Source: an uncultured bacterium (lineage in GTDB: Bacteria > Patescibacteriota > Patescibacteriia > CAIQCM01). Taken from it: a stretch of DNA of 64,000 bases. The notes below the pieces were generated by a model that was not told where the DNA came from, did no database searches, and saw only the letters and a list, made by a program, of their open reading frames with translations. The stretch is from contig OY970181.1 of assembly GCA_963708045.1 (NCBI GenBank), positions 643,740 through 707,739 on the forward strand. Direction: 5' to 3'. The position numbers and the translations under genes are program-made. Of this stretch, positions 2,083-49,945 are shown in pieces (the stretch's first letter is position 1; each line of letters starts with the position of its first letter).

Positions 2083-3135
2083 ATGAGAAAAATTTTCCTT
2101 TGTGGCGCGGTGGTGATTATTGTACTTGCTGGAGTTTTTGTGTTTATTTTTAATTCGCCTTATTTTTTAATACCAAAAGAAAAAATTCCGCTCGCGACCG
2201 CGACTTTGCCTTCGTCAAAAACCGATTCAATGTGGGGAATTGATTTTTCTCAGTCGCAAACCGAGTACTTGGGTTTAGACTGGAAAGAAACTTATAACGC
2301 AATTCTTGACGATCTTGGTGTAAAGGATATTAAATTACATACAAACTGGAATTGGGTTGAGGGTAAGAAAAATGATTTTTATTTTAACGATATTGATTGG
2401 CAGATTAAAAAAGCCGAAGAAAAAAACGCCAAGATAATTTATGTGCTCGGAATGAAAACTGGCCGCTGGCCGGAGTGTCATTTGCCTGATTGGGCGGAAG
2501 ATTCGTCAAAAGCAGACGTGCGCGCCGAACTTCTTAAATATATAACCGCCGTGGTCAGTCGCTACAAAGATTCAAAAGCTGTAGCTTATTGGCAAGTGGA
2601 AAACGAGCCGTTTTTAAAATTTGGCGGTTGTCCGTCTTGGTACTACGCAAAAGACAATTTTTTAAAAACGGAAATTGACTTAGTGCGTTCGCTTGATCCG
2701 TCGCGGAAAATAATCGTTTCCGAATCGGGTGAACTTTCGGATTGGACTGGGGCGGCCAAGCTCGCCGATATTGTTGGGGTCACACTTTATCGGAGTGCGT
2801 GGACAAAAGTTACGGAAACTTTTGGTTTTGAATCGTATTCGTTTAAAGTGCCGTCGTATTATGCTAAAAAAGCGGATAATATTAAAAAACTTTTTGGCAA
2901 AAATGTTATTTGTATTGAACTTCAGGCCGAGCCGTGGGCCGGAAAACCGCTTCCTTTGGCATCGCTCAAAGAGCAGTTAAAATCAATGAATTTGGCGATG
3001 TTTAAAGAAGACGTCGCGTTTGCGAAACAAACCAACTTGGACAAGTTTTATTTTTGGGGTGTAGAATGGTGGTATTGGATGAAAGCAAAGCAAAATCAGC
3101 CAGAAATTTGGAATGAAGCCAAAAAACTTTTCTAA
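2083..3135 (+). CDS. membrane-anchored clan GH-A (GH5-like) glycoside hydrolase
   Basis: N-terminal TM anchor; 'WQVENEP' acid/base motif and 'IELQAEPW' nucleophile motif about 105 aa apart; paralogous to 57669..58709. Confidence 0.7.
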   Translation: MRKIFLCGAVVIIVLAGVFVFIFNSPYFLIPKEKIPLATATLPSSKTDSMWGIDFSQSQTEYLGLDWKETYNAILDDLGVKDIKLHTNWNWVEGKKNDFYFNDIDWQIKKAEEKNAKIIYVLGMKTGRWPECHLPDWAEDSSKADVRAELLKYITAVVSRYKDSKAVAYWQVENEPFLKFGGCPSWYYAKDNFLKTEIDLVRSLDPSRKIIVSESGELSDWTGAAKLADIVGVTLYRSAWTKVTETFGFESYSFKVPSYYAKKADNIKKLFGKNVICIELQAEPWAGKPLPLASLKEQLKSMNLAMFKEDVAFAKQTNLDKFYFWGVEWWYWMKAKQNQPEIWNEAKKLF

Positions 3136-3280: not shown

Positions 3281-3865
3281 ATGAGAAAAATAATGAAACA
3301 ATTTAAAAATATCGGCCTCTGGAGCATAACGGCAATAATAACGATTGTGGCTAGTGGTATTGGCGGGGCAAATTATGCTTATGCCGCCAACAGTGCCACA
3401 CAGTCGGCCTCAACTGCGGCAGCTACAACTATTTCAGTTGTTGCCAAGACGGCCGATACCGATGTAACCACAATTACCTTTCCTCAGGGTTCTCCGGGTG
3501 CGACCGTCTCAACCCCGTACAACAACATTGATGACGTAGCTGATGCGCAGGTGTTGAGCGGAACCGTCAGCGAACCCGTTGTAAGATTAAAAAATACCTC
3601 AGCCGGAGCGCTTACTGTTACGCTCGCTATTACCTCATGGACTAGCGGTGTAGTGGCATCAGAAGATTACGAGTTAATTGCTCCTGCCACTACAACTGTC
3701 GCAACCTTGACCAAAGCACTGTCCACTGATGGTAGTGCAGCTAGTGTTGATACTACATATTCAATTGCCTCATCCGCATACGGCGCTCTTTATCTTGAAA
3801 CAGTTCTAAGTGGTTTAGCAAGCGTGACAGGAACATCTACACTGTCTGTTCTCGGAGAATCCTAA
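3281..3865 (+). CDS. secreted protein sharing a domain with the C-terminus of the giant surface protein
   Basis: Signal peptide (ATG at 3281 after GAGGTGA); Thr/Ser/Ala-rich; 'TITFPQGSPGATVSTPYNN...LSGLASVTGTSTLSVLGES' parallels the giant protein C-terminus. Confidence 0.5.
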   Translation: MRKIMKQFKNIGLWSITAIITIVASGIGGANYAYAANSATQSASTAAATTISVVAKTADTDVTTITFPQGSPGATVSTPYNNIDDVADAQVLSGTVSEPVVRLKNTSAGALTVTLAITSWTSGVVASEDYELIAPATTTVATLTKALSTDGSAASVDTTYSIASSAYGALYLETVLSGLASVTGTSTLSVLGES

Positions 3866-3874
3866 TAAAATAAA

Positions 3875-4513
3875 ATGAAACTTATTCTTAAAGGAAATAA
3901 ATACTGCAAAAGTACAGGATTGTTGATACTGTTTTTCGGATTGCTGTTAATTTTGGGTTCTTCCGCACAAGCGACATCGGTAAACCGAATGTCGCTTGTT
4001 AATTTGGAAGCCAAACCGGGGCAGGTTATTAAGACGGAAATTACTCTAGAGGGTACCGATGGGGGAGAAAGAACTGGTTATTGGTATACAAATTACAAGC
4101 AAATAGATGGCGATGACGATAAAATGGATATTACTTCGTGGATTACGATTAGTCCAAAAGATTTTACTATCAAGCAAGGTGAAAAGTTGAACTTTACTAT
4201 TACTGTAAAGGTACCAAGAAATGCGACTAGTGGTCTCTGGGGCGCGACCGTAAAAGAAGCTGGGCAGGAAGGTCACTCTGCCGAAAGACGAACCTATGTT
4301 GTTTTTAAAGACGCCCCAGCGGGCGGCAATGTGTATTCGGGTTTATTAATTCCTGTTTCGGTCAAGGTTTCTGAAAGTGCCGACGCAGCAGCTGGCATTA
4401 TTAATTTCATTCTCAATAATTTACTTGTTATTATTTTGTCGGTGGTGATAATCGCAATGGTGGTTGTACAGTTAATATTGAAAAAAAAGAAAAAACCAGC
4501 CGTCAAACGGTAG
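3875..4513 (+). CDS. cell-surface protein with signal peptide and C-terminal TM anchor
   Basis: N-terminal signal peptide, beta-rich ectodomain, C-terminal hydrophobic helix followed by 'KKKKKPAVKR'. Confidence 0.55.
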   Translation: MKLILKGNKYCKSTGLLILFFGLLLILGSSAQATSVNRMSLVNLEAKPGQVIKTEITLEGTDGGERTGYWYTNYKQIDGDDDKMDITSWITISPKDFTIKQGEKLNFTITVKVPRNATSGLWGATVKEAGQEGHSAERRTYVVFKDAPAGGNVYSGLLIPVSVKVSESADAAAGIINFILNNLLVIILSVVIIAMVVVQLILKKKKKPAVKR

Positions 4514-4582
4514 TTAGAATCTGATTTTGACTGCCGCGTATTATTAAACTAGACAAACAAGCGTTGTTTTGTCGGTGTAATT

Positions 4583-7500
4583 ATGCTGGTAAATAAAAAG
4601 GCAAATATTATAAAAATTTTCAATCAGGGTCTTTTTCCAAAGACCCTGATTGTGATTTTAGTCATTTTCTTTTCGTTTTTTGGATCGTTAATACGACACC
4701 AGAATCAAAAAATGACCAACTCCGCCAAAACAAGCGACGTGCTTGTTGTTTCTGGTAATAGTAATTTTCGTGTTGATGAAATACCTGAGTTTCGCGTTGA
4801 TCTACCCAAAGGAACAACAGCGAAGACTAGTTTGTCAAAAGTTTTTGAAATATTCGGCGTTCGTACGACCTTGGCCGGGGATGTGGTAAAGAGCGAAGTG
4901 TCAAATTACTATGATCCAACAATAAAGCCGCAGACGGTTGCTGAGTTTGACGGCAATGGCGTTAAATTGACTGTTCCAAAACCGGAAACGCAATTTAGGC
5001 CGGGAAAATATTCCATTAAGATTGAATTTAACGCCGGTGACCAGGTTTTAAAAACGGAACGGGATTTTACTTGGGGCGTGCTGGCGGTGAACACCGACAA
5101 GTCGGTTTACTCGCCTGGCGAGACCGCTAACTTGCAATTGGGCGCGCTTACCGATGTAGGCAGCACTATTTGCCGCGGCAATCTTGAACTTGGCGTGACC
5201 GATCCGCAGGGCAAAACGACCGTTCTTTCGACTAAAGACGGTTCAATCGCCTTCGGCACCGAGTGCCGCGGCAACAACGTGACCGACAAGCCCGATTACG
5301 TCGCCAATTACTTTGTTATGGCGGTCGGTGAATATAAGTTGAAATTTACCAATCTTGATAACGGTTATTCAATTGAAGATCGTTTTGTATCGCAGAAAGC
5401 GGTTCCTTTCATTGTGGAGCGGATCGGCGCGACGCGTATTAACCCGACGCGCGCCGATTATGCGATGTCGTTTCGCATAACGGCCAACGAAGATTTTTCC
5501 GGTGACGTCAGCGAAACCGTTCCCGGGGGGTTTGTAATCAAGGAAACTGGAGATGCTATGGTGCAGGCGGTCGGGGAAACGAATGTGCTGACCTGGCGCA
5601 GTATCGCGCTTAAGGCCGGAGAGGTAAAGATATTGCGGTATGTTTATGACGCGCCCAACATTTCGCCAAAAATATACGAGCTCGGCCCGCTCAGCTTCAC
5701 GGAGAACGGAATTGTCCGATGGCAAGAAGCGCGACGCTGGCAAATAGCCGCCGATGCCACCAAAACCGCCGCCGGGACCGGTAACTGGAATACCGCCGCA
5801 ACCTGGTCGCCGAGCGGCGTGCCGGCTGCGGGCGACGATGTAATCATTATCAGCGGATACACCGTGACCATGAACGTTAACAACCCCGCCTCGCCCGCCA
5901 CCATAACGCTCGGCGGCGCAACGGCGGGAACGTTGTCAATGTCTCTGGCTAACACAAGTCTTACCTTTACGATCACGGGAAACGTGACCATAAACAGCAA
6001 CGGATCTTTCGTCGTCACCAATGCTACGGCCGCAAATACGCACACGGTCAATATCGGCGGAAATTTGGTCGAGAATGGCACCTTCGACATGGGTTCTGCC
6101 ACAGACGACTATGCGACGGTCGTCTTTAACGGCACGTCCGCGCAAACGATAAGCGGCACCGGTGCGACCTGCAGATTTTTCAGCCTTACCGCAAATAATT
6201 CGAGCGCTACAGGCTTAACGCTCGCGAGAAACGTGACAGTACAGCCGACCAGCGTGCTTACCACCACCATAACAGTATCGGCGAATCGCGTTTTTGATAT
6301 CGGCGCCTATACCATTGATCGATCAGCCGCTGGCGCCGGTTCATTCATCATTAACTCCGGCTCAACTCTTAAAATTGGCGGCACTGGCGATTTCCCAACC
6401 AATTACACAACCAACACCATAAACGCCGCAAGTACCGTCAATTATAACGGCACTACGCAAAGCGTGAACGCTTTCACGTATGGAAATTTACAGATCAACG
6501 GTTCGGGCACCAAGACATCGGCCGGAGTGATAACTGTTTCTGTTAATCTAACCATAGGAGATGGTGCAACTCTTTCGCATGGGGCTTATAACTTGACGGT
6601 GACTGGCACTTCAACGATCGGCGGGGGAACGAGCGGTGGCCTCACCCTGTCTTCGGCCACCGGCACCAAGCAATTCACCGGCGCGGTGACGGTCGCGAAC
6701 GGCGCGACCTGGAACAACTCCGGCAACTCGGCCGTTAATTTTCGCGGCGGACTCACCAATAACGGGACTTTCACTGCCGGCTCGGGCGTATATACCTTCG
6801 ATACCAATTCGCAGAACCTTTACGGAACCGTATCCATTCCCAACGTTACGGTCACCGGTGTTACTCTGACCAATAATAATTCGCTTACCGTCGGCACAGC
6901 GCTTTCCGGCACCGGCGGCGTGACCCAAGCGTCTTCCGCAAGCTTGACCATCACCGGCACGTCGGGCATAACGACGCTTACGGCCACGGCGAGCAGTAAC
7001 ACCGTCACCTATAACGGCAGCAGTCAGACTGTCAAAGCCACGACCTACTACACGCTTACTATGAACGGTTCGGGCACGGCCACACTCGGTGGTACTGTCT
7101 CGGCCACAACCTTGAATGTGTCGGCGTCCGTACTTAACACCAATAATCAGAGCTTGTCGGTGAGCGGCACGACGACCGTGGACGGGGGGCTCGGCATCAC
7201 CACCGGAACCTCGGGCACGATCAGTTTTGGCAACCTCACAATCAGTGCAACAGGCGCATTCAGCAACTCCGTCAATGACGATTTCAGTATCAGTGGAAAT
7301 TTTTCCAACAGCAACACCTTTTCTGCGGGGACGGGAAATACGGTCACATTGAATGGTGTTGGCGGCTCAACGCAGACCATTACTGGCAGCAGCACTTTTC
7401 CTAACCTAACGGCCACGGCTTCTTCCGCGCGCACAATCCGCTTTGCCGCTTCATCCACGACCACGGTTACCGGAACTTGGACAGTCGCCGGAAGCTCGGG

Positions 7501-9571
7501 ACAGCGCATAACTTTGACCTCCACAACTACGAGCCAGTGGAGCGTAAACCCGACCACCCCCGCGGTTTCCTATGTTGATTTGAACTACTCCAACAATATC
7601 AGTGGTTCTACCGCTTGCGCCACCTATTCGCAGACGACTAGCGGTAATAACACGAGCTGGATGATCTCTGACAGTGGTTCCTGTGTCAGTGTGCCGAATC
7701 CGCCGGTTTTATATCCTGACGATGGTGGTACTTATCAGGTCACCTTCAATAACACCCGGCAGTTTGACGCAACGCCTATCGTTCGCGCTTCGGCTACACA
7801 TACTGCAAGTTTCAACCGATTCCAAATTGAATTCAACGCGGCTTCGGATTTCGGCGGCACCGCCTACACCGAGACACTTTCTGGAACTTATTTGTCAGGC
7901 ACTCCTTATAACCTCCAGACTACCGGCACCTTGGGTCTGCCCACGACTGATGGGGTGACTTATTATGTCCGGGTGCGAGCCTCGGCTGACGGCGGCTCGA
8001 GCTACAGCGGCTGGTCTGCGTTGGTTTGGTCTTATACTTACAAAAGCTCGGGAAGCACCGATTGGTTTCAGACGACCGATGCACAGTTTAATACAGGGAC
8101 TTTCAGTTCAACCGAAACAACAGGTTCCGGTTCGGTCGGACTGTTAAGCGGTTCAATCGCGGAATTAAATATAATTCAGACGACAAAAGTTGAACCAACG
8201 GCAACGGGATCGTCGATTCCTTTTGTTTTAGGTTCTCAGCCGACTGTTGGCAATCTGCTGGTGGCGTTTGTTGGAAATTCTGATTATTCAGAAGACAGAA
8301 CCGCATCAGCTCCGGACGGAACCTGGACAAAAATTCAAGATCAAACAAGTTCCAATGTGCAACTTACGATTTGGTGGAAAATAGTTGGGGGAGGAGATGG
8401 GACGACATATACCTTTCCGGTCAGTGGGACGGTTGAATGGTATTCCGGAGTATTGTATGAAATTGAAGGCGCGGATTCAACTACACCTATAGATCAAAGT
8501 GCTGTAAATACCGGCTCACAAACCACACCAACCGTTACGCCGACTGTCATCGGTACCCTAGCCTTGTCATCATTAGAAACAGACGACGGCTCAACCGGCG
8601 GCATAACCCTTACTAGTATTAGCAGCGGCTGGACCGAAGATCAGACGGCACGGCCTTCATATCACACGACTTATGCGTCTTCGCGAGACGCTTTAACAAC
8701 CGATACGACAACAGCCATATCCAATGTCTATACTCTTTCCGGCTCACCAACTACTCCTGTTGCTGCAACTGTTTTAATCAAGCCTACTATTAATTCTTTT
8801 AGCTCCGGATCTGTTACGTCTCCGGCGATCAATTTTGATTCTGTTCCAAATTCAACAAGTTGGGGCACGGCATCATGGTCGGAAACGGAAACGAACGGTT
8901 CAATATCCATGCAAGTATATTATGATGCGGGCAGTGGTTGTAATACGATTATTCCAGACGGAGCACTTACTGGAAATAGTGCTGGTTTTGCGACTGGTCC
9001 TATTAATATTTCCGGCTTGAACACCACAACCTACGCCGATCTCTGCCTTAAGGCGACACTTTCTAATTCCACAGGGTCGCCGTATTTAAATGATTGGACT
9101 TTAAGTTGGTCCACCGGTCCATCAACGGCAATCGAGGTCAGGGCACAGAATTACACCACCCCGGTATCAAGCATTACTTTTCCACAAAGTCCTCCGGGCT
9201 CCGCGGTCACACAACCATATAACGACGTGAATGGGAGTGGTAGCTCACAAGCGTTCGGCAGTGCCGGGGTCGCCAAACCGGTCGTAACGCTCTATAATGG
9301 TGGCGCCGTCCCCCTGACCATTTGGTATAATATAACAACCTTCACGAATGGGATCGTTGCGAGTGAGGGGTATCTTGTAAATAACAAAGGAGCTGCTTGC
9401 GCGAATGCGGGTGCGATTACGGCGTCTGCGGTCTTTGACACGGATACAAGCACCGGCGTGACGATACTTGCCGGTGCGGGCAATGAAAAAGATCTTTATT
9501 TAAAAACAACGCTCAGTGGACTGGCAGCCGTAAGCGGCACCTCAACGTTGACTATTTTGGGTGAAACATGA
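4583..9571 (+). CDS. giant (1662 aa) membrane-anchored surface protein with beta-helix-like G/T/N-rich repeats
   Basis: Single uninterrupted 4989-nt ORF; N-terminal TM anchor; repeats such as 'GTGNWNTAATWSPSGVPAAGDDVIIISGYTVTMN' and 'TLGG..G.L'; C-terminal domain homologous to the 200-aa protein at 3281..3865. Confidence 0.8.
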   Translation: MLVNKKANIIKIFNQGLFPKTLIVILVIFFSFFGSLIRHQNQKMTNSAKTSDVLVVSGNSNFRVDEIPEFRVDLPKGTTAKTSLSKVFEIFGVRTTLAGDVVKSEVSNYYDPTIKPQTVAEFDGNGVKLTVPKPETQFRPGKYSIKIEFNAGDQVLKTERDFTWGVLAVNTDKSVYSPGETANLQLGALTDVGSTICRGNLELGVTDPQGKTTVLSTKDGSIAFGTECRGNNVTDKPDYVANYFVMAVGEYKLKFTNLDNGYSIEDRFVSQKAVPFIVERIGATRINPTRADYAMSFRITANEDFSGDVSETVPGGFVIKETGDAMVQAVGETNVLTWRSIALKAGEVKILRYVYDAPNISPKIYELGPLSFTENGIVRWQEARRWQIAADATKTAAGTGNWNTAATWSPSGVPAAGDDVIIISGYTVTMNVNNPASPATITLGGATAGTLSMSLANTSLTFTITGNVTINSNGSFVVTNATAANTHTVNIGGNLVENGTFDMGSATDDYATVVFNGTSAQTISGTGATCRFFSLTANNSSATGLTLARNVTVQPTSVLTTTITVSANRVFDIGAYTIDRSAAGAGSFIINSGSTLKIGGTGDFPTNYTTNTINAASTVNYNGTTQSVNAFTYGNLQINGSGTKTSAGVITVSVNLTIGDGATLSHGAYNLTVTGTSTIGGGTSGGLTLSSATGTKQFTGAVTVANGATWNNSGNSAVNFRGGLTNNGTFTAGSGVYTFDTNSQNLYGTVSIPNVTVTGVTLTNNNSLTVGTALSGTGGVTQASSASLTITGTSGITTLTATASSNTVTYNGSSQTVKATTYYTLTMNGSGTATLGGTVSATTLNVSASVLNTNNQSLSVSGTTTVDGGLGITTGTSGTISFGNLTISATGAFSNSVNDDFSISGNFSNSNTFSAGTGNTVTLNGVGGSTQTITGSSTFPNLTATASSARTIRFAASSTTTVTGTWTVAGSSGQRITLTSTTTSQWSVNPTTPAVSYVDLNYSNNISGSTACATYSQTTSGNNTSWMISDSGSCVSVPNPPVLYPDDGGTYQVTFNNTRQFDATPIVRASATHTASFNRFQIEFNAASDFGGTAYTETLSGTYLSGTPYNLQTTGTLGLPTTDGVTYYVRVRASADGGSSYSGWSALVWSYTYKSSGSTDWFQTTDAQFNTGTFSSTETTGSGSVGLLSGSIAELNIIQTTKVEPTATGSSIPFVLGSQPTVGNLLVAFVGNSDYSEDRTASAPDGTWTKIQDQTSSNVQLTIWWKIVGGGDGTTYTFPVSGTVEWYSGVLYEIEGADSTTPIDQSAVNTGSQTTPTVTPTVIGTLALSSLETDDGSTGGITLTSISSGWTEDQTARPSYHTTYASSRDALTTDTTTAISNVYTLSGSPTTPVAATVLIKPTINSFSSGSVTSPAINFDSVPNSTSWGTASWSETETNGSISMQVYYDAGSGCNTIIPDGALTGNSAGFATGPINISGLNTTTYADLCLKATLSNSTGSPYLNDWTLSWSTGPSTAIEVRAQNYTTPVSSITFPQSPPGSAVTQPYNDVNGSGSSQAFGSAGVAKPVVTLYNGGAVPLTIWYNITTFTNGIVASEGYLVNNKGAACANAGAITASAVFDTDTSTGVTILAGAGNEKDLYLKTTLSGLAAVSGTSTLTILGET

Positions 9572-10602
9572 AGACAATATATGTTCTGTTAATTTTAATA
9601 TGCTTGTCGTTCCAAGGCATTTCCGGTCGTGCTGCTTCACAACAGGCCAGTACAACGGCTCCGGTTTGCGGTAATAATATTAAAGAATCGGGGGAACAAT
9701 GTGATGGTGCTGACTTTGGTGGCGCTTCTTGTGTTTCGCGCGGGTATGGCGGCGGCGGTTCATTAAGTTGTAGTGTTGCTTGTGTTTTTGTTACCTCTCT
9801 CTGTATTTCTGGCGGTGGTGGAGGAGGGGGTGGCGGTGGGGGTGGCACATATATTCCACCCGTTGAAACAAGAGTAATTTTTTCGGGACGAGCATATCCA
9901 AAAAGTTCGGTAACTTTACTTAAAGATTCGGCAGTGGTCGCAGTTACTGTTGCTGACGCCGGTGCAAATTTTCAAGTTGAGTTAGCTGGACTGTCTCCGG
10001 GGAATTATATGTTTTCAGTTTACAGTGAAGACGACAAAAGTATTCGTTCTCCCATCTTGACCTTCCCAATTTTTGTTACAACCGGCACAACGACCCGTAT
10101 TGGATCGATTTTTATCGCGCCAACGATCGCTGTTGATAAAAGCGAGGTGGTCCGTGGCGATAATATCGCGATTTTTGGGCAGAGCGCGCCAAATAGCGAG
10201 ATAACGATTGCTGTTAATTCGGATGAAGAATTTTTTGGTAAGACAAATTCGGATAGTGGCGGAGCTTATTTGTATAATTTTGATACCGTTGATTTGGAAA
10301 AAGGACAACATCTCACCAAATCAAAAGCCGCACTTTCTGGGGAAATTAGCTCGTACAGCAAAGCGGTAGGTTTTACTGTCGGCGATAAAAATACGTCAAC
10401 CGTGCCGACGGACGGTGCGTGCGGTAAAAGCGATTTAAATTGTGATGGCAGAGTTAACCTAGTTGATTTTTCTATCGGTGCTTATTGGTATAAGCGAACG
10501 CTGAGCGATGCTTTTAAAAAAATTGAACAAGCTCGTTTGAATAACGATGGGAAAATTAACATTGTTGATTTTAGTATCATGGCTTATTATTGGACGGGAT
10601 AA
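9568..10602 (+). CDS. secreted protein with Cys-rich repeat, poly-Gly linker, Ig-like middle and C-terminal type-I dockerin
   Basis: Start ATG overlaps the giant gene's stop (ATGA); 'CGNNIKESGEQCDGADFGG' Cys-rich repeat; G12 tract; dockerin repeats 'DLNCDGRVNLVDFSI' and 'LNNDGKINIVDFSI'. Confidence 0.7.
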   Translation: MKTIYVLLILICLSFQGISGRAASQQASTTAPVCGNNIKESGEQCDGADFGGASCVSRGYGGGGSLSCSVACVFVTSLCISGGGGGGGGGGGGTYIPPVETRVIFSGRAYPKSSVTLLKDSAVVAVTVADAGANFQVELAGLSPGNYMFSVYSEDDKSIRSPILTFPIFVTTGTTTRIGSIFIAPTIAVDKSEVVRGDNIAIFGQSAPNSEITIAVNSDEEFFGKTNSDSGGAYLYNFDTVDLEKGQHLTKSKAALSGEISSYSKAVGFTVGDKNTSTVPTDGACGKSDLNCDGRVNLVDFSIGAYWYKRTLSDAFKKIEQARLNNDGKINIVDFSIMAYYWTG

Positions 10603-10604
10603 AT

Positions 10605-11513
10605 ATGAAAAAAATACGTCTTATTATATTGTTGTTTATTATATTTTTTTTGAGTGCAATAAAAGTAGAAGCATCAGAAATATTTTTTCGCACGAAAAAT
10701 GTTGAAGTTGGGTTGAACTCAAAAATTGAAGTCAAAGTATATTTGAATAGTGCCGATGAGCTTGTAAACGCGGTTGAGAGCGAAATAATTTTTCCGTCCG
10801 ATTTTTTTGATCTTGATGGTTTTTATACCGGCGGATCTGTTCTTTCGCTTTGGGTTGGCGAACCGACTTTGTCTTCCTCTGACACGGTTTCGTTTGCGGG
10901 AATAGTCCCTGGCGGCTTTAATGATGCGAATGGGTATTTGTTTTCAATGATTCTTACGGCTAAAAAGGATGGTGTTGCTGTTATTTCGGCGAACAACGAA
11001 AGAATTTTACTAAATGATGGACTCGGATCGCCGTCCTTGGTTACTAAAAGTTCTTTAACCTTAAACGTCAATAATTTGAGCGTACCGCAAGATTTTGTTC
11101 CGCTCGCGGACGCGACGCCGCCGGATTCTTTTGAACCAAAAATATCCAAAGATAACCAAATTTTTGACGGGCGCGCGTTTCTGTCTTTTGTTAGTCAGGA
11201 TAAAGGCACGGGAATTTATCGCTATGAAGTAAAAGAAGTTCTGCCCATGGGATCGTTTTCTAGTTTGTTTAAAAAAGGCGCGTGGCGGACGGCGGAAAGT
11301 CCATATCTCCTGCAAGACCAAACTTTAAAAAGTTTTATTTATGTTAAGGCGGTTGATTGGGATGGAAATGAGCGCATTGTACAAATACGTCCAGTAAACG
11401 ACCTTATATGGTATGAGAACTATTTAATCTGGACGATTTTTGCATTAACCGTCATAGTGTTATTTGTCTGTTCGTTATTGCTAAAGACAATTCTTATTCG
11501 CAAAAAAGCTTAG
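10605..11513 (+). CDS. cohesin-like domain protein with signal peptide and C-terminal TM anchor
   Basis: Signal peptide; about 140-aa beta-sandwich-like segment 'IEVKVYLNSADELVNAVESEIIFP...VSFAGIVPGGFNDANGYLFSMILTAKKDGVAVISANNERILLNDG' resembling type-I cohesin; C-terminal TM and 'IRKKA'. Confidence 0.5.
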   Translation: MKKIRLIILLFIIFFLSAIKVEASEIFFRTKNVEVGLNSKIEVKVYLNSADELVNAVESEIIFPSDFFDLDGFYTGGSVLSLWVGEPTLSSSDTVSFAGIVPGGFNDANGYLFSMILTAKKDGVAVISANNERILLNDGLGSPSLVTKSSLTLNVNNLSVPQDFVPLADATPPDSFEPKISKDNQIFDGRAFLSFVSQDKGTGIYRYEVKEVLPMGSFSSLFKKGAWRTAESPYLLQDQTLKSFIYVKAVDWDGNERIVQIRPVNDLIWYENYLIWTIFALTVIVLFVCSLLLKTILIRKKA

Positions 11514-11549
11514 CCTCGGGTTATTGTTTCTGTCAAAAGATAGGTTGAT

Positions 11550-11580
11550 GGCAAACCGCTTTTTGGCGGTTTTGCCAATT
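11550..11580 (+). terminator. hairpin terminator-like element downstream of the cohesin-like gene
   Basis: 'GGCAAACCGC-TTTTTG-GCGGTTTTGCC' stem-loop followed by an A/T-rich tail. Confidence 0.45.
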
Positions 11581-11639
11581 TAGAAAAATTGTTATTGTTG
11601 TTCAACGGAAATAGAACCAAAAAATCAGTCGTTTAATTT

Positions 11640-37216: not shown

Positions 37217-38275
37217 ATGGAAAGAATTGTTGAAGAACTGATCGCGTTAAATGACGGCAGTTCGTTAATGTTTTGCGATGCGGGCGTGCGGGCGCAACGG
37301 ATGCGTTTTCGCGCCAAATATAAAATTCGTACGGTTTGCTTTAAGTGTGGCGACGGACGAATTAACCTGGCGCATATTACCAAAACTCCGCTGGGATTAA
37401 TTTTCCCTTTCCGGAACATCGGCGGCGTTTTTGATATGGGCTGGCCAGCGCTCGCCGAACGAGTCTGTGGAATTGTTCAAAATTCAATTGACGATGGTCG
37501 CTCAAATCTTTTTGTTGTCACCTATCATTTTTCTAAGGGCGATGTTCATCGCGGTTGTCGCGGGATGGGCTATGATAAACAAAAAGGAGTTGATAACGCC
37601 GCTCGTTTCGTTCGTCAACTAGAAGAAGTTTTTGGCTCTGGGCACGAGCAAGTTGACGTGGTGATGGTTGGAATAGAGACGGATGAAGACCTTTTAATCT
37701 TGCACGACCGGAGCGGGGCGAGGGCAATTGCGACGACGGAGGTTATGAAAGACGGCAAAGAATCGGCTGTTTCAATCATTCGTGAGTTGTATCCGGATAT
37801 GGCACCGGAAATGGTGAACTACTTTCTTCATTTGGTTGAGGGGAACGTCGCGCACGTAGAAGAGTTGCGGAAAAATCCGCGCCCGCCCGTGTCGCTTAGT
37901 CATACCGAACGCGTGCTGGCACTTGGGCAGGGTTTTGACTGGTTGCATTCGCCTAATTTCGCCGTCATTGTCAATTACTTTGATCCGATGTTGGACGACG
38001 CGGTTGGTACCGGCGCTGGCATCATCATTAATAATCGCGACGAGGGAAGGATACCTAACGACAATGCCTTGCTGGTTGCGTCAATTGGTTATCGCGAGCA
38101 AGGATTTCAATACAACGCCGCCAAAGCACAAGCTTTTTATTTGGCAAGGTTGGGAATGGAATCTGTTCGTAAGTTTCATCCAGGGAACGAAGGGTTTTTT
38201 CATTCAGTTGTCGGTGTTGTTGATATGTATCGGCGGAAATTGGAAATTCTTCGGGTCAACGGCTTATCGGTTTAG
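37217..38275 (+). CDS. hypothetical cytoplasmic protein with beta-carbonic-anhydrase-like CxDxR...HxxC signature
   Basis: 'KCGDGR' (C44-x-D46-x-R48) and 'HRGC' (H111, C114) spaced like beta-CA zinc ligands; GGGAGG RBS; strong terminator follows. Confidence 0.4.
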   Translation: MERIVEELIALNDGSSLMFCDAGVRAQRMRFRAKYKIRTVCFKCGDGRINLAHITKTPLGLIFPFRNIGGVFDMGWPALAERVCGIVQNSIDDGRSNLFVVTYHFSKGDVHRGCRGMGYDKQKGVDNAARFVRQLEEVFGSGHEQVDVVMVGIETDEDLLILHDRSGARAIATTEVMKDGKESAVSIIRELYPDMAPEMVNYFLHLVEGNVAHVEELRKNPRPPVSLSHTERVLALGQGFDWLHSPNFAVIVNYFDPMLDDAVGTGAGIIINNRDEGRIPNDNALLVASIGYREQGFQYNAAKAQAFYLARLGMESVRKFHPGNEGFFHSVVGVVDMYRRKLEILRVNGLSV

Positions 38276-38284
38276 TTCGCGTTT

Positions 38285-38330
38285 TTCACCCCAACCAAGC
38301 TCGGCTTGGTTGGGGTGAAGTTATATTTTC
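38285..38330 (+). terminator. rho-independent terminator
   Basis: Perfect 16-bp stem 'TTCACCCCAACCAAGC-TCG-GCTTGGTTGGGGTGAA' followed by a T-rich tail. Confidence 0.65.
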
Positions 38331-38387
38331 GTCACAAAGAGTGCACTTTACAAAGGAAATCGGTTTGCGCTATAGTTTTATCTTGAA

Positions 38388-38930
38388 ATGCTAAGACTTT
38401 TTGCGAAAACCTTGCGCACGGGAATAATCACCGAATCTCCCTCAAAGATTCGTGATTTTAATTTAGAAAATTTTGAAATAATCGGCGGCAATATTAAGAA
38501 ACTCGTGGACGAACTTTACGGCGGCCGCGCTTTGCGGATTCGCCACGTGGATGCCGGTTCAACCAATGCGGAAGAACTAGAACTCACTGCACTCGGGAAT
38601 CCGTATTACGACCTTGAACGTTTTGGTTTGTCGTTTACCGCTTCGCCAAGGCATGCCGATATTTTGACCGTTTCGGGTCCCGTAACGCGCAATATGGAAC
38701 ACGCGCTAAAAGTCGCTTATGAAATGACGCCCGAACCGAAGATAGTAGTTGCGGTGGGGGATGGGGCGATAACGGGCGGTATCTGGAATGGATCTTATGC
38801 AATCGTGGGACCGGTTCACGCAGTTATTCCGGTTGACGCAAAAATCCCCGGCGATCCGCCGTCGCCCCTCGCGATAATGAAAGGCTTGCTTTCGGCTTTG
38901 CAAACCGTCAAAGATAAAAAAGATGTTTAA
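38388..38930 (+). CDS. NuoB / hydrogenase small-subunit homologue with no cysteines
   Basis: 'YDLERFG', 'ASPRHADILTVSG', 'MTPEPKIVVAVGDGAITGG', 'IPVDAKIPGDPP' align to NuoB; every cluster-ligand Cys is replaced (CC to GS, C to G, C to D). Confidence 0.8.
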   Translation: MLRLFAKTLRTGIITESPSKIRDFNLENFEIIGGNIKKLVDELYGGRALRIRHVDAGSTNAEELELTALGNPYYDLERFGLSFTASPRHADILTVSGPVTRNMEHALKVAYEMTPEPKIVVAVGDGAITGGIWNGSYAIVGPVHAVIPVDAKIPGDPPSPLAIMKGLLSALQTVKDKKDV

Positions 38931-40932
38931 TCAAAACACGATTTCCTATTTGTTTTTTGCGGCAACGGCCTTGTCACTCGCGGCTGGAATTTTTGGTTTG
39001 TTTGGAAAAAATTCAAAAGCCTTTAATACCGTGGTTGGTGTTTTAAATATGGCGGGCGCGCTCGCGCTGGCTGTGTCCGCCGGCAGTTTTTTATTTTTGC
39101 AGGATCGCGGTTTGTTTGCGGTAGGGGACGCTCGCCTGATTGATCTTTCACACCTCGTGCCGTTTATTGGTTCGCGCGCTCTCTCTTTGGATATGCTCTC
39201 GGCCTATTTTCTTTTGCTTGTCGGCCTTGGTGTTTTTCTTGTTTCTTGGTTTGGAATATTTTATTTGCCGCGCTACAAAGAACAGTATCGTTTCCCTTGG
39301 CTTCACATTGCGACGGCGCTGTTTATTTTTGGAATGGAAATTACCGTTGTCGCCGGAACGCCGTTGGTTTTTCTTTTTGCTTGGGAAATAATGTCGTTTG
39401 CCGCGTATTTTTTGGTGATTGCCGACCGCAAAGCCGAATCGGTTAAAGCTGGTTTTTCTTATATCATTATGACCCAGCTTGGCGCCGCTTGTTTGCTTGC
39501 TGGTTTTGCGATTGTTTCGGGTGGTAATATGAACGCGCTGCTTTCTGGTTTGCAATTAGCGCCGGGCGCGGCGGCGGTTGCCGGCTTGGTTTTGCTGATC
39601 ATTGGTTTTGCCGCCAAGGCCGGTATTTTCCCGTTTCACGAATGGCTTCCACTCGCGCATCCGCAAGCGCCGTCGTCAGCTTCGGCACTTATGAGCGGCG
39701 TGATGCTTAAGGTGGCGCTTTACGGACTTTTGCGAACACTCCAAACGATCGCCCATTTTTCTCTACCTCTCTCTGTGGTTCTCATCATTATCGGCTTTGC
39801 GCTTTTTACTGCGTTTTACGGCGCACTGATGGCGGCGGTGGAAACCGACCTTAAACGAACTTTGGCTTGGAGTTCGGTTGAAAATATGGGGTTAATGTTT
39901 GCGATGGCTGGCACGGTTACTTTTTTGGTGCAACTTGGCGCGATGGATGCCGCGGGCGCCGTTTGGATCGCGCTTTTTGTTTTTGCCTTTTGCCATATGC
40001 TTTTTAAGTCGGGTTTGTTTATGGCCGCGGGCGCGCTTATTTCGGAAACACATACGCGTGACCTTGATCTAATGGGTGGACTGGCGAAAAAGTGGCCGGT
40101 TTTCTCGGGTTGGTTTTTATTGCTCGCGCTTTCGGCCGCCGCCTTGCCGCCGGCGGGAACGTTTTATGCGGAATGGATTTTCTTAACGACGGCGGGCGCG
40201 GTTGCGAGCGCTGGCGCGGTTGTCGGATTTATTTTTGTAATCATAATTTCTATTTTTGCTTTGGCCGCTGGTTTAGCTGCGTTTGCAATGATTAAAGTTT
40301 TTGCCGCCGCGTTTCTTGCAAAGCCGCGGAGTGAACATTCGGAACACGCCAAAAGAATGCCAAAAGCGCTTTATGCGCCAGCGGCCGTCGCCGCCGCTTT
40401 GTGCGTTGGCCTTGGTTTGGCACTTCCATATTTTTTGCGCGGCTTATGGCCAAGCGCGGAACGCGTGGTATTTTCTAACGCTTCGCTTATCGCTAGTGGC
40501 GCAAAACTTTCGCCCTTGTTTGTTGCCGCGGCCTTTGTCTTTGTCGCACTTGGCGTTTGGCTGATTCGTTTAGCTTTTAACCGACGCAAGATTCGCATTA
40601 CGGATACCTGGGACTGCGGCGCGCCGCTAACAGCTCGTATGGAATACACGGCAACGGCTTTTTCCGCGCCGCCGCGTTTCTTTTTCCGCGCCTTTACTTT
40701 GCCTTGGAAAAAAATGTCCGTCACGCCAGTTACATTGGGAAACAAATGGATCGCGCAAAAAAAATTGGAGCACGGCACAAAAATGCTCGCCGAGCGCTTT
40801 CTTTATCAACCGGTCGCAATGACGCTTGACCGTCTTTCGGGCGGCGTAAAACTGATGCAAAATGGTGTGGTTCAGTTTTATCTGGCGCTTATCTTTGTTG
40901 CTTTGGTCGTAACGCTTATTGTTGCCCTATGA
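38923..40932 (+). CDS. NuoL/MrpA/HyfB-like antiporter-type membrane subunit
   Basis: 'FPFHEWLPLAHPQAPSSASALMSGVMLKVALYGLLR' hallmark motif; 669 aa and about 16 TM helices; ATG overlaps upstream stop. Confidence 0.8.
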   Translation: MFNQNTISYLFFAATALSLAAGIFGLFGKNSKAFNTVVGVLNMAGALALAVSAGSFLFLQDRGLFAVGDARLIDLSHLVPFIGSRALSLDMLSAYFLLLVGLGVFLVSWFGIFYLPRYKEQYRFPWLHIATALFIFGMEITVVAGTPLVFLFAWEIMSFAAYFLVIADRKAESVKAGFSYIIMTQLGAACLLAGFAIVSGGNMNALLSGLQLAPGAAAVAGLVLLIIGFAAKAGIFPFHEWLPLAHPQAPSSASALMSGVMLKVALYGLLRTLQTIAHFSLPLSVVLIIIGFALFTAFYGALMAAVETDLKRTLAWSSVENMGLMFAMAGTVTFLVQLGAMDAAGAVWIALFVFAFCHMLFKSGLFMAAGALISETHTRDLDLMGGLAKKWPVFSGWFLLLALSAAALPPAGTFYAEWIFLTTAGAVASAGAVVGFIFVIIISIFALAAGLAAFAMIKVFAAAFLAKPRSEHSEHAKRMPKALYAPAAVAAALCVGLGLALPYFLRGLWPSAERVVFSNASLIASGAKLSPLFVAAAFVFVALGVWLIRLAFNRRKIRITDTWDCGAPLTARMEYTATAFSAPPRFFFRAFTLPWKKMSVTPVTLGNKWIAQKKLEHGTKMLAERFLYQPVAMTLDRLSGGVKLMQNGVVQFYLALIFVALVVTLIVAL

Positions 40933-41852
40933 ACACGGTAAATTTAATTATCAGCACAGTTATTATTATTCTTCTCGCGCCGCTTTTTACCGGCTTGATT
41001 CGGAAATTTAAAGCGTTTTTTGGTAATCGCCGCGGCGCGCCCTTGCTTCAGCCATATCGTTCGCTGGCCACGCTTACAAAAAAAGAAATGACGATATCTG
41101 AACACGCAAGCTGGGTGTTTCACGGCGTACCGTTTGTTGTTTTGGGTTGTGCAATTTTTGTGGCCGTGATTGTTCCGACGTTTTTTGCGAGCGGTGTCAC
41201 AATTGGCAATTTATTTTTACTCTCCGCGGTTTTGATGATCGGCGCTTGTGCTTTAGTTTTGGGTGGAATGGACACAGCCTCGGCTTTTGGCGGAATGGGT
41301 GCTAGCCGCGAAATGACCATTGCCGCGCTGACCGAGCCAGTGCTTGTTCTTGCGCTGGTTGCGCTTGGTGCGACGACTGGTTCGTGGACTGCGGGTGGAG
41401 TGCTACAGGAAATGGCTTTGGCGCCGTGGTGGCTGGTGCATCCGTTTATGGTGCTCGTCTTTGGCGCTTTGGCGATGATTGTTTTGGCCGAAGGCGCGCG
41501 CTATCCGGTTGATAACCCGACCACCCACCTTGAACTCACAATGGTTCACGAAGCAATGGTGCTTGAATATTCTGGTCCGTATTTGGCGATGCTTGAATAT
41601 GCGGCGGCTTTAAAATATGCCGTGCTCGCCGTTTTCTTCGTTAACTTAGTCGTGCCTTATAGTGTTTGGGGCGCGGGCGCGACGCTTACTGCTGGCATTA
41701 TCGGTTTTGCTGTTAAGTTTATTTTGGCCGCGTTCCTTACAGCGTTTCTTGAATCAATGGTTGCCAAAATGCGCTTCTACCGCTTGCAAGAATATTTTAC
41801 GGCTGCTTACTTGCTCGTATTTTTTGGTTTTTTACTTTCCTTGATGTTCTAA
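40929..41852 (+). CDS. NuoH/HycD-like membrane subunit
   Basis: 'GNRRGAPLLQPYRSLATLTKKE' loop resembling NuoH 'R.GP...QP..D..KL..KE'; 8 TM helices; ATGA overlap. Confidence 0.7.
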   Translation: MNTVNLIISTVIIILLAPLFTGLIRKFKAFFGNRRGAPLLQPYRSLATLTKKEMTISEHASWVFHGVPFVVLGCAIFVAVIVPTFFASGVTIGNLFLLSAVLMIGACALVLGGMDTASAFGGMGASREMTIAALTEPVLVLALVALGATTGSWTAGGVLQEMALAPWWLVHPFMVLVFGALAMIVLAEGARYPVDNPTTHLELTMVHEAMVLEYSGPYLAMLEYAAALKYAVLAVFFVNLVVPYSVWGAGATLTAGIIGFAVKFILAAFLTAFLESMVAKMRFYRLQEYFTAAYLLVFFGFLLSLMF

Positions 41853-41856
41853 AGCT

Positions 41857-42513
41857 ATGACTGCTGACACTTATCGTTTATTGGTTGATATCCTCGCAGG
41901 TGTGATGCTTGTTTCTGGAGTTTTTATGCTTGGTCGCGTTCGCGTCCGCTCGCTTTTGCGTTTCTTTGCCGTGCAATCGTTCGCGCTCGCGCTTGTCGCC
42001 GCGGCAAGTGCGATCTTTGAAGGGCGTTGGCACCTAATGGCGACAGCGATTCTTGTTTTTGCTATAAAAACAATTTTTTTGCCGCTGTTTATGGTCTCGG
42101 TTATGGCCAAAGGGCGCATTTACGAACGGCTGGTTTTTGCAATGCGTCCGGCACTGTCAATGTTTGTCGGCGCGATAATGGCAGTGCTTGGTTTTTATCT
42201 GACGGCTTCGCTTATTCCCGAACTTGGCGATAATTTTTTCGTGGTTGCAGTTTCGGTTTCCATTGCCCTTGTTGGTCTCCTAATGCTTATGACGCGCAAA
42301 GGACTCTACGGCCAAATCGTCGGCTTCCTAATTTTAGAGAACGGGATTTTTACTTTGGGGATGGCGCTTACCGGAGGGATGCCGCTCATTGTTGAGGTTG
42401 GAATATTTTTTGACGTAACCGTTGGCGCGATTATTATGGCCTTGCTTTCATATCGCGTTCACAGCGAAAGCCGCCGCGCTGACACTGAGTATTTGGAAAC
42501 TCTTATTGACTAG
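41857..42513 (+). CDS. HyfE/NuoK-family small membrane subunit
   Basis: 218 aa with 6-7 TM helices, no Cys-rich motif; position and size match HyfE. Confidence 0.5.
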   Translation: MTADTYRLLVDILAGVMLVSGVFMLGRVRVRSLLRFFAVQSFALALVAAASAIFEGRWHLMATAILVFAIKTIFLPLFMVSVMAKGRIYERLVFAMRPALSMFVGAIMAVLGFYLTASLIPELGDNFFVVAVSVSIALVGLLMLMTRKGLYGQIVGFLILENGIFTLGMALTGGMPLIVEVGIFFDVTVGAIIMALLSYRVHSESRRADTEYLETLID

Positions 42514-42516
42514 CTT

Positions 42517-43977
42517 ATGTATATAATTTTTGCCGTCCTAGCCGCCGCCATCACCGCCCTTGTTTGTCTTTTTGCGCGGAATTATCGCGCGCTCACGATC
42601 TCGGCCGTTAGCGGATCGTTTGTTGTTTTTGCCTTCGCGCTCATTTCCATCGGCGCTTGGTTTGGTTTTATTCCGGGGAGTATGGCTTGGCTTAAGTTTG
42701 ACGGGTTTGGCGCGGTGATGTTGGCGCTCGTTGCCGTCGTGCAACTTTTTGCGACCATTTCAAGCGTTCCGTATTTGCGCGCGGAAATAGAAGAGGGGAC
42801 GGTTACTTTTTCGCAAGCGCGTTGGTATAACGCGCTAATTCCAGCCTTTGTCATTTCAATGATCCTCGCGGTTTCGGTTGATTCGCTTGGTCTTATGTGG
42901 ATTGCGATGGAAGGCACGACGCTTGCGACGACAATGCTTGTAGCTTTTTATACAAAAGAAGGTTCGCTTGAAGCGGCTTGGAAATATATTCTCGTTTGCT
43001 CGGCCGGCATTGCGATTGGTTTGATTGGCGTTCTCCTTATCTTCTATGCCGCTTTTTTGGGAAGCGGCAGCGAAACCGTTTCCATAACTTGGACAAGCCT
43101 TTTGGCGTCGGCGCACTTGTTGCCGCCGGCAGTTGTTAAATTGGCGTTCGTTTTTGCTTTCATCGGTTTTGGCACCAAAGTCGGAATGGTGCCAATGCAT
43201 ACTTGGCTTCCCGATGCCCATGGCAGGACGCCGTCGCCGGTTTCGGGAATGCTTTCGGCTGTGCTTTTGCCAATCGCGCTTTTGATTATTTATCGTGCCA
43301 AGGTGGTTGTTGATGCCGTTCTTGGCTCGGCTGACTGGAGCAATGGTTTCTTTATTTTCTTTGGCGCGCTTTCGGTTGCCGTGTCGGTTTGTTTTATGGT
43401 GAGGCAAAAAAACTACAAGCGCCTGCTCGCTTATTCCTCCATAGAACATATGGGCTTTGCGGTTTTTGCCTTAGGCTTTGGAAAGCTCGGTGTAATTTTT
43501 GCGATGATTCACATTATCGGCCATGCCCTAATTAAATCGGCACTCTTCTTTGGCACGGGTAATATTTTGATCGCCTATAAAAGCACCAAGTTTGACAAGG
43601 TGGCGATGGTTGCCAAATATTTGCCAAGACTCTCTGTACTTTTTGTCATTGCCTTGCTAATGCTTTTGGCCGTACCGCCGTCGCCGCTTTTCTTTTCCGA
43701 GCTGGGAATTTTTGCGCTGGGTTTTGGCACGCATCCGCTCGCTTCAGCCATCGTGCTCGCCGCTTCGGTTATCGCCGCTGGTTCGTTTTTTATGAATTTT
43801 ATTCCGATGTTTTTTCTTGGTCACGACGACGCCCGGCCGACGCATAAAGAAGTTGAACATTGGAACGCGACGCATACGGCGATTGCGGCCGGTTTGGTTT
43901 TAGCCGTGGCTTTTGGTGTGTCGCTTCTCGCTGGTTCTGGCCGCGAAATGCTTGCTCAAATTATTTCAATCATCTAG
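42517..43977 (+). CDS. NuoN/NuoM/HyfF-like antiporter-type membrane subunit
   Basis: 'MVPMHTWLPDAHGRTPSPVSGMLSAVLLPIALL' hallmark motif; 486 aa. Confidence 0.8.
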   Translation: MYIIFAVLAAAITALVCLFARNYRALTISAVSGSFVVFAFALISIGAWFGFIPGSMAWLKFDGFGAVMLALVAVVQLFATISSVPYLRAEIEEGTVTFSQARWYNALIPAFVISMILAVSVDSLGLMWIAMEGTTLATTMLVAFYTKEGSLEAAWKYILVCSAGIAIGLIGVLLIFYAAFLGSGSETVSITWTSLLASAHLLPPAVVKLAFVFAFIGFGTKVGMVPMHTWLPDAHGRTPSPVSGMLSAVLLPIALLIIYRAKVVVDAVLGSADWSNGFFIFFGALSVAVSVCFMVRQKNYKRLLAYSSIEHMGFAVFALGFGKLGVIFAMIHIIGHALIKSALFFGTGNILIAYKSTKFDKVAMVAKYLPRLSVLFVIALLMLLAVPPSPLFFSELGIFALGFGTHPLASAIVLAASVIAAGSFFMNFIPMFFLGHDDARPTHKEVEHWNATHTAIAAGLVLAVAFGVSLLAGSGREMLAQIISII

Positions 43978-43982
43978 ACATT

Positions 43983-46038: not shown

Positions 46039-46181
46039 GGAAGATATGTATCTGGGACAGAACTGTGTCATCCTATGTTAATAGAAAAAGGCATTATAGG
46101 GGAGGAGTTGTAATTGATGGTTTAAACGACTACGCTATCAGTGTAACCACTACCGATTTAGAGTCTATATAATTAACCGCA

Positions 46182-48167: not shown

Positions 48168-48184
48168 ACTCAAAAACGGCGTCT

Positions 48185-49227: not shown

Positions 49228-49252
49228 CTGTGACAGGATCGTTTGTTAATGT

Positions 49253-49822: not shown

Positions 49823-49889
49823 CTCTTCGTTTTTGCTATCCACTCGCCCTACACCAATACTAAAATAAAAAATACAGTACACTTTTGAC

Positions 49890-49940: not shown

Positions 49941-49945
49941 TGTTT

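Follow-up and report, generated by a model that had tools for sequence, protein, structure and literature searches.

A predicted dockerin and cohesin operon of Patescibacteria, a candidate system for non-enzymatic surface display

Gene content of the locus

Five consecutive genes, here named P1 to P5, occupy positions 3281 to 11513 of a 64,000-nucleotide stretch of contig OY970181.1 (assembly GCA_963708045.1) from an uncultured bacterium; the whole stretch is called the window below. Here we report that a secreted protein ending in a dockerin (P4) and a membrane-anchored protein with a predicted cohesin (P5) are encoded side by side in this locus, and that P1 to P5, judged by gene order in relatives, are one operon conserved among Patescibacteria, usually together with a sixth gene (P6). 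All five genes lie on the + strand, and open reading frame (ORF) calls place P1 at 3281-3865 (194 aa), P2 at 3875-4513 (212 aa), P3 at 4583-9571 (1662 aa), P4 at 9568-10602 (344 aa) and P5 at 10605-11513 (302 aa). The spacers are, in order, 9, 69, -4 and 2 nt; as read directly in the DNA, the P3 stop and the P4 start share an ATGA, and the ATG of P5 stands 2 nt 3' of the P4 stop. This layout, including the overlap, agrees with that given in an earlier reading of the window made from its letters alone (the sequence-only reading). Each of the five proteins has database homologues with E < 1e-50, and the genes are therefore not chance ORFs. Promoter and terminator scans of the locus returned results at chance level.

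Proteins identical to P1-P5 are present on a contig of 1,188,223 bp, and all named relatives belong to the Patescibacteria (candidate phyla radiation, CPR), consistent with the earlier suggestion that the DNA comes from a small-genome organism. A Kyte-Doolittle hydropathy scan found a hydrophobic N-terminal segment in all five proteins and, at the C-termini of P2 (residues 183-201) and P5 (residues 274-292), a transmembrane (TM) helix with a basic tail. The membrane segments proposed from the sequence are thus borne out at the N-termini of P1-P5 and the C-termini of P2 and P5; P3 carries such a segment at its N-terminus only.

A dockerin and a predicted cohesin encoded side by side

P4 is predicted to be a secreted protein composed of a signal peptide, a Cys-rich module (residues ~34-80, weakly DUF4215-like), a Gly13 linker (nt 9817-9846), two Ig-like domains (Big_6 at residues 105-164 and a second at ~184-275) and a C-terminal dockerin. 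When that region is scanned alone, the Pfam match to Big_6 reaches 29.4 bits, over the cut-off. The linker is encoded by GGT/GGC/GGA/GGG codons, recorded by Tandem Repeats Finder as an array at 9817-9846, and these codons underlie a 98-aa ORF on the - strand (9552-9848) that opens with a poly-Pro run and is an artefact of the linker, not a gene.

The dockerin module (10426-10599, + strand; P4 residues 287-344) contains the two repeats of calcium loop plus helix required of a type I dockerin, near-identical to each other: DLNCDGRVNLVDFSIGAYWYKR and RLNNDGKINIVDFSIMAYYWTG. It had been described as a textbook module with two 'D.N.DG.VN.VD' repeats, and this holds exactly for repeat 1, DLNCDGRVNLVD, while repeat 2, RLNNDGKINIVD, has Arg and not Asp at loop position 1. 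Counting D or N at loop positions 1, 3, 5, 9 and 12, the first loop presents five of five ligands (D289, N291, D293, N297, D300) and the second four of five (R323, N325, D327, N331, D334). To place these residues in their family, the P4 C-terminus was aligned with 100 relatives (n = 101). Loop 1 keeps the motif D-x-N-x-D-G-x-V-N-x-x-D at 90-99% (D 94, N 92, D 97, N 90 and D 99%), and loop 2 is more varied at its first and fourth ligands (D 61/R 21, N 91, D 98, D 67/N 23 and D 100%). The two helices, DFSIxAYWY and DFSIMAYYW, hardly differ, and the near two-fold symmetry runs through the 101 sequences. Near-identical 22-residue repeats are the basis on which type I dockerins show dual binding (PMC5429695), and the symmetry of the P4 module may reflect the same arrangement.

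Profile searches gave a borderline result. Against Pfam Dockerin_1 (PF00404), the check that the sequence-only reading had proposed, P4 scores 21.6 bits (E 2.6e-4) where the curated cut-off is 22.9, and among structures in the Protein Data Bank (PDB) it matches the dockerin 2y3n_B at E 7.8e-4, with others including 5nrm_B, 4fl4_A and 1daq_A, several at E 0.016-0.3. On its repeats and these matches we regard the C-terminus of P4 as a genuine dockerin. Pfam scans detected no catalytic domain in P4, as had been noted from the sequence. The same pattern extends to the relatives: exactly one dockerin ORF is present in 98 of 99 loci, its dockerin always C-terminal, and no dockerin protein in the loci examined carries an enzyme domain.

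P5 is predicted to be membrane-anchored. In an AlphaFold2 (AF2) model built on a 53-sequence alignment (mean predicted local distance difference test score, pLDDT, 95.2; predicted template-modelling score, pTM, 0.81), a signal peptide (residues 1-23) is followed by a cohesin (residues 24-156, nt 10674-11072, + strand), a linker carrying a DxxPPExF motif, an FN3-like domain (residues 179-261, nt 11139-11387, + strand) and a TM helix (residues 273-301, nt 11421-11507, + strand). In a Foldseek search of the PDB, the best 49 matches of this model are all cohesins, with probability 1.00. The best is 2w1n, the cohesin and FN3 double module of Clostridium perfringens GH84C (E 2.6e-11); the superposition on 2vo8 gives a TM-score of 0.82 and a root-mean-square deviation (rmsd) of 2.3 A, and the closest single-cohesin matches have an rmsd of 2.2-2.3 A.

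A direct route to the same assignment failed. P5 matches no Pfam or NCBIfam family at E <= 1, Cohesin (PF00963) included, and phmmer against the PDB returns no cohesin, so that the profile check proposed in the sequence-only reading came out negative and the identification comes from structure prediction and family-level searches. The latter supply sequence intermediates: PF00963 is found in 6 of 53 P5 relatives (best E 2.9e-6), P0099, P0113 and P0114 among the P5-family matches carry it, and the sole PDB matches of a P5-family profile are Ruminococcus flavefaciens cohesins (E 0.013-0.07). The family comprises 116 matches, all unnamed or labelled Patescibacteria. We call the P5 ectodomain a cohesin because the model is confident, its fold matches are exclusively cohesins and its relatives include Pfam Cohesin members; predicted fold and transitive sequence links support the cohesin-like ectodomain that had been read from the sequence.

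Conservation of the operon across Patescibacteria

Related loci were gathered in two ways. Genome loci come from a P5-based scan of species-representative genomes with an 11-sequence P5 alignment, in which the best 80 of at least 179 relatives were examined; metagenome loci were found through P1, and 18 with all components were sampled. A dockerin gene lies directly upstream of a P5-type gene in 74 of the 80 genome loci, so the adjacency seen in the window is a feature of many Patescibacteria lineages: the named sources of the loci include Wolfe-, Vogel-, Colwell-, Lipton-, Uhr-, Kaiser-, Doudna-, Campbell-, Falkow-, Jorgensen-, Komeili- and Harrisonbacteria, as well as Ca. Microsyncoccus archaeolyticus (our locus L006). 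The full order of P1, P2, a cargo gene whose product ends in the P1 domain (described below), P4 and P5, usually then P6, is present in the 18 metagenome loci and in genome locus L161. The cargo gene and P4 overlap or are separated by at most 18 nt in 13 of the 18, which indicates that the translational coupling suggested by the P3/P4 overlap is found in relatives too.

P6, a second cohesin gene, stands directly downstream of P5 in about 70 of the 80 genome loci. Its products are ~570-700 aa long, and in the examples read a signal peptide and a cohesin are followed by FN3/Ig domains, a TM helix and, as the tail, a coiled coil. The window has no P6 anywhere in its 64 kb, and P5 is the sole cohesin there; after P5 come 126 nt (11514-11639) and then an ABC-transporter pair. 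The closest relative of P5 (E 4e-109), in locus L162, shares this downstream pair and likewise has no P6-type gene, and it also lacks P1-P3. The locus looks mosaic, in that P1-P4 are closest to L161 (P4 E 9e-148) and P5 with the ABC pair is closest to L162.

Conservation differs among the components. Across the 18 metagenome loci, median identity to the window is 60% for P1, 61% for P2, 67% for the fused P1 domain of the cargo, 60% for the dockerin and 35% for P5. No flanking gene is conserved with the operon and no other partner family recurs; a two-component system, a glycoside hydrolase (GH)-like gene, the ABC pair and a CAP gene were each considered as members of the system and set aside, none being conserved with it.

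Six divergent loci (L014, L018, L020, L027, L041 and L047) have the same six-gene layout built around a different shared domain of ~190 aa, which again occurs both in a small protein and at the C-terminus of a giant one (in L018, at 1764-2459 and 4525-8880). This alternative domain has no Pfam match and shows 'GW.L' and 'DWTL' motifs reminiscent of WxL; its small proteins keep a P1-like signal peptide (...GGLG.ATYVLA). Homology with the P1 domain was rejected, the hhalign probability being 0.1. Since these loci rebuild the layout with an unrelated domain, we argue that it is the architecture itself that selection preserves. Read by eye, the stretch 2474-4541 of L018 also encodes a P2-like protein in which a pair of Ig-like domains precedes a TM helix and a tail resembling LysM, and a class-A beta-lactamase-like gene lies between the P2-like gene and the giant cargo gene.

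A new domain shared by P1 and the cargo proteins

P1 is a small secreted protein whose predicted signal peptide spans approximately residues 1-34 (AYA|AN) and whose mature part consists of a single domain, here termed the P1 domain. The same domain closes P3: residues 37-194 of P1 align by BLASTP with the last 160 residues of P3 (1503-1662; nt 9089-9568, + strand; ending ...GTSTLTILGET) at 41% identity and E 2e-25, and a P1-family profile hidden Markov model (HMM) matches P3 residues 1493-1662 at E 2e-53. This likeness, the variable cargo position and the conservation of the operon were all absent from the first reading of the locus.

The domain is all-beta in an AF2 model (pLDDT 87, core above 94). 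Its 86 close homologues, at 51-79% identity, are all unnamed or labelled Patescibacteria, and an exhaustive profile search of 1.84 billion representative sequences found it in only 129 clusters (50% identity). P1 has no Pfam or NCBIfam match, and Pfam was equally silent across 41 family members; Foldseek against the PDB gave nothing significant (best E 8.5e-3, TM-score at most 0.37). The domain occurs exclusively either alone, in proteins of ~185-198 aa with a signal peptide, or at the very C-terminal end of larger proteins (300-1427 aa). It has one near-invariant Trp in ...W(T/S)(N/G)..., and its C-terminus, ...STLTVLGE, is free of Trp. Based on these searches and the model, it constitutes a new family of C-terminal domains, with neither a Pfam entry nor a solved relative.

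The N-terminal parts fused to it vary widely, comprising DUF2341, Laminin_G_3, a lectin fold like that of 3-keto-disaccharide hydrolases, MG2, CHB_HEX_C/Fn3_assoc, and a papain protease with a lectin; by kind these are lectins, a protease and Ig modules. Genes at the P3 position in relatives encode 180-1429 aa. The position is thus hypervariable in both length and content, and the giant protein of the window is not a fixed component.

In the window this position is filled by P3, which opens with a hydrophobic segment that is a signal or an anchor (residues 19-37), continues with an Ig/MG2-like N-terminal region, a T/S/G/N-rich, beta-rich region and further beta domains, and closes with the P1 domain. 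The T/S/G/N-rich region (residues 396-1030, nt 5768-7672, + strand) contains 21% T, 13% S, 13% G and 10% N and shows a strand-like alternation at lag 2. The earlier description of P3 as a giant, membrane-anchored, G/T/N-rich protein is borne out for the composition, here T/S/G/N; the C-terminus is a soluble domain, so that an anchor, if there is one, must be the N-terminal segment. The same description called P3 a beta-helix-like repeat protein, and here it finds no support: there is no tandem repeat in the DNA, no hydrophobic periodicity beyond lag 2 exceeds that of shuffled sequences, and of the profiles that might mark a right-handed parallel beta-helix, PbH1 and Beta_helix do not match and only G8 does so, below threshold. 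With no repeat period the term stays unverified and is best treated as a guess. All family matches of P3 are weak (MG2 E 6e-4, G8 E 1e-3, WxLIP_HBD E 0.03-0.05), and none of its sequence matches a PDB entry.

Two smaller observations concern the P3 gene. A perfect hairpin with a 14-bp stem, CAATCAGGGTCTTT/ttcc/AAAGACCCTGATTG, lies at 4621-4652, within P3 codons 13-24 and ahead of the hydrophobic segment; it could be an attenuator or a processing site between P2 and P3, or could have arisen by chance. In a near-identical Logan assembly, ERR12035931, the P3 gene appears as two separate gene calls (1169 aa and 452 aa), which may be either strain variation or a problem of assembly or frameshift.

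P2 is predicted to consist of a signal peptide and a single Ig-like ectodomain, followed at the C-terminus by a TM helix (residues 183-201, nt 4421-4477, + strand) and a Lys-rich tail. It directly follows P1 in all related loci with flank, and upstream of the dockerin gene a P2-like one is present in 41/60 loci with enough flank, and in 19/20. Its similarity to the WxL-interacting protein (WxLIP) of Firmicutes is only suggestive: the match of P2 to Pfam WxLIP_PGBD (DUF916) has an E of 0.015, and weak matches in five of ten P2 relatives scanned range from E 1.6e-4 to 0.018, all under the cut-off of 27.3 bits. A P2-family profile of 22 sequences has 511 matches, the best 120 of which carry no Pfam annotation, and finds nothing in the PDB.

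Comparison with known systems

The closest structural counterparts of P5 are the glycoside-hydrolase and toxin complexes of C. perfringens (2w1n, 2vo8, 2jh2) and a cohesin of Archaeoglobus fulgidus (2xdh). Like the C. perfringens pairs, the locus combines a single cohesin with a single dockerin and has no cellulose-degrading context. Unlike them, the P5 cohesin is carried on its own C-terminal TM helix and falls below Pfam Cohesin detection, the P4 dockerin has no enzyme or toxin domain, and the pair belongs to a conserved Patescibacteria operon of five to six genes. With cellulosomes, amylosomes and mucinolysomes (PMC5429695, PMC4611034, PMC12997984) the locus shares a dockerin made of two 22-residue repeats of calcium loop and helix. 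The multi-cohesin scaffoldin and dockerin-bearing enzymes that define a cellulosome are both missing, however: each protein has one cohesin, each locus one dockerin, no carbohydrate-active enzyme carries a dockerin, and anchoring is by a TM helix rather than by S-layer homology (SLH) modules or sortase.

The first three genes invite a different comparison. The WxL clusters of Firmicutes encode a small WxL protein, a large one that carries a WxL domain at its C-terminus, and a membrane-anchored WxLIP of DUF916-DUF3324 type (PF06030/PF11797; PMC10599100, PMC1534035). The same three-part layout, as defined in PMC10599100, is found here in the domain-only P1, the Ig-like P2 with its C-terminal TM helix and the large, variable P3 ending in the P1 domain, and the gene order is also alike. 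In contrast to WxL proteins, the P1 domain has no pair of Trp-x-Leu motifs, nor a match to the WxL family (PF13731), which is absent at E <= 1 from P1, P3 and 41 P1-family members; P2 has one Ig domain where WxLIP has two, and matches it below threshold only; the cohesin-dockerin module is joined on; and the phylum is different. P1 as a WxL domain was accordingly rejected. Since P1 fails the defining features, P1-P3 may be said to work like a WxL cluster without being a member of that group.

A third likeness is to fibres assembled by donor-strand exchange (FimH/FimA; the archaeal 0406 threads, 7pnb): the cargo combines putative binding domains at the N-terminus with a subunit-like domain at the C-terminus, and beside it stands a small, strongly conserved subunit made of that domain only. 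In contrast to such fibres, chaperone and usher genes are absent and the fold matches of P1 lack significance (FimA 6r74, E 9.6e-3, TM-score 0.25-0.29; 7pnb, E 0.035).

Non-cellulosomal pairs of cohesin and dockerin (amylosomes, PMC4611034; mucinolysomes, PMC12997984) and WxL clusters (PMC1534035, PMC10599100) are already known. We found no description of the present cassette in the literature searched. New here are the combination of both in one conserved Patescibacteria operon, the single cohesins anchored by TM helices and the P1 domain family. A stand-alone dockerin protein, SEML1_0315, is essential in the Saccharibacterium Southlakia epibionticum (PMC10633639); it is a 927-aa Ig-rich protein encoded next to a tRNA, and was rejected as an instance of this cassette.

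Proposed function and alternative explanations

Based on these observations, we think it somewhat probable that the five genes are one operon for a surface-display complex that is non-enzymatic, is held together non-covalently, uses two tethering systems and is typical of Patescibacteria. P5 would sit in the cytoplasmic membrane by its C-terminal helix and present its cohesin on the FN3-like stalk; the calcium-dependent dockerin of the secreted P4 would plug into this cohesin, and in relatives into that of P6 as well. The membrane-anchored P2, together with the P1 domain, would retain or organise P1 and the cargo P3, much as WxLIP and WxL domains do in Firmicutes (PMC10599100). The P3 position would hold a variable cargo that determines specificity, here a putative adhesin of 1662 aa, and P4 would probably act as an adaptor between the cargo or P1 domains and the cohesin anchor, a role suggested by its coupling to the cargo gene. 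A display model of this kind agrees with the signal peptides and TM anchors in P1-P5; the contacts between the proteins, their location at the surface and the adhesive role are what we infer from sequence, predicted structure and analogy.

Several of the results given above weigh against this proposal. P5 itself lacks a Pfam Cohesin match even at E <= 1 and is far less conserved than the dockerin it is thought to bind (median 35% against 60% identity), and the usual second cohesin gene is missing from the window. The dockerin, for its part, scores 1.3 bits under the Dockerin_1 cut-off and has Arg at the first calcium-ligand position of its second loop. On the tethering side, P1 has neither WxL motif nor WxL match, and the link of P2 to WxLIP depends on sub-threshold matches, with the best 120 of its 511 relatives devoid of Pfam annotation.

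Some of these points bear on whether P4 and P5 are partners at all. The cohesin-like and dockerin-like modules could instead belong to co-regulated neighbouring surface proteins, the dockerin serving as a calcium- or glycan-binding module or binding a cohesin encoded elsewhere, such as one of the P6 type. The two cohesin genes per dockerin in relatives make the partner ambiguous, P6 is absent from the window, P5 diverges faster than the dockerin, and non-cellulosomal dockerins with unknown partners are common, SEML1_0315 being one example (PMC10633639). Nevertheless, the adjacency of P4 and P5 is near-universal, on the same strand and with tight spacing, each locus has one dockerin, and P5 is the sole cohesin within the 64 kb of the window; we therefore consider this explanation quite improbable. 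Still less probable, to the point that we give it very little weight, is a miniature cellulosome-like complex for degrading polysaccharide or protein rather than for adhesion or display. The cargo-position proteins of some relatives do contain a papain-type protease, CHB_HEX_C or a module like lectins or 3-keto-disaccharide hydrolases, and just upstream the window has a gene for a membrane-anchored protein like clan-A glycoside hydrolases, but conservation of the operon does not extend to that gene, scans of P1-P5 detected no catalytic domain, and in the loci examined the single dockerin protein never carries an enzyme domain and no multi-cohesin scaffoldin accompanies it.

Another alternative is that the operon builds a fibre or pilus, with P1 as a polymerising major subunit (for instance by donor-strand exchange) and P3 as a tip adhesin comparable to FimH; P2 would then be a membrane-anchored chaperone or base, and P4-P5 would fix the fibre to the membrane. 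In favour of this, P1 is a small protein of strong conservation (median identity 60%, at most 79%), its free and fused subtypes are each conserved, the cargo-N, domain-C layout is that of tip adhesins, and mature P1 begins with a conserved strand, rich in Ser, Thr and Ala, for which the model has a pLDDT of 74-86, below that of the core. FimA, FimH and the Sulfolobus 0406 thread subunit also appear among the weak Foldseek matches of P1. Those matches are not significant, however (E >= 0.0096, TM-score at most 0.29), and the operon has no conserved neighbour that is an usher, a sortase, a dedicated signal peptidase or an ATPase, and we regard both the fibre and the roles it assigns to P2, P4 and P5 as unlikely.

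Returning to the surface-display complex, a wider and doubtful version of it, possible in our view though hardly to be expected, is that of an attachment organelle found throughout the phylum, in which the membrane-anchored cohesin pair and the dockerin adaptor form a universal socket and lineage-specific cargo proteins are mounted on it by interchangeable C-terminal plug domains, the P1 domain here and an unrelated one in other lineages. If this were true, the cargo position would set which host cell or polymer the episymbiont binds. Beyond type IV pili, host recognition and attachment by the ultra-small, host-dependent Patescibacteria are largely obscure, and the operon, which pairs a plug and socket of dockerin and cohesin with a hypervariable cargo position, offers a testable candidate. 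Related species that carry the kit number well above a hundred, and Patescibacteria may use it to display adhesins; the reach of cohesin-dockerin biology would also widen to a setting that is non-enzymatic and tethered to the membrane. Experiments are conceivable, since an enriched archaeal parasite, Ca. Microsyncoccus archaeolyticus, has a relative of the cassette.

Neighbouring genes

Directly upstream of the operon, the gene at 2083-3135 encodes the membrane-anchored clan-A glycoside-hydrolase-like protein mentioned above, with a weak GH42 match and an 'ENEP' motif. Farther downstream, a + strand run at 37217-45542 with strong negative AT skew includes an Mrp-antiporter/NuoL-like subunit (38923-40932, Proton_antipo_M) and a fused Complex1_30kDa and 49kDa protein resembling the large subunit of NiFe hydrogenases (43860-45542). 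By these family matches the run looks like a group-4 membrane-bound hydrogenase or a complex-I-like module, which would be unusual for a patescibacterium. It is followed at 46000-50000 by an island of low GC content (0.34 vs ~0.45) with a KAP-family P-loop NTPase (46182-48167) and small ORFs without a family, which may be a mobile or defence-type insertion.

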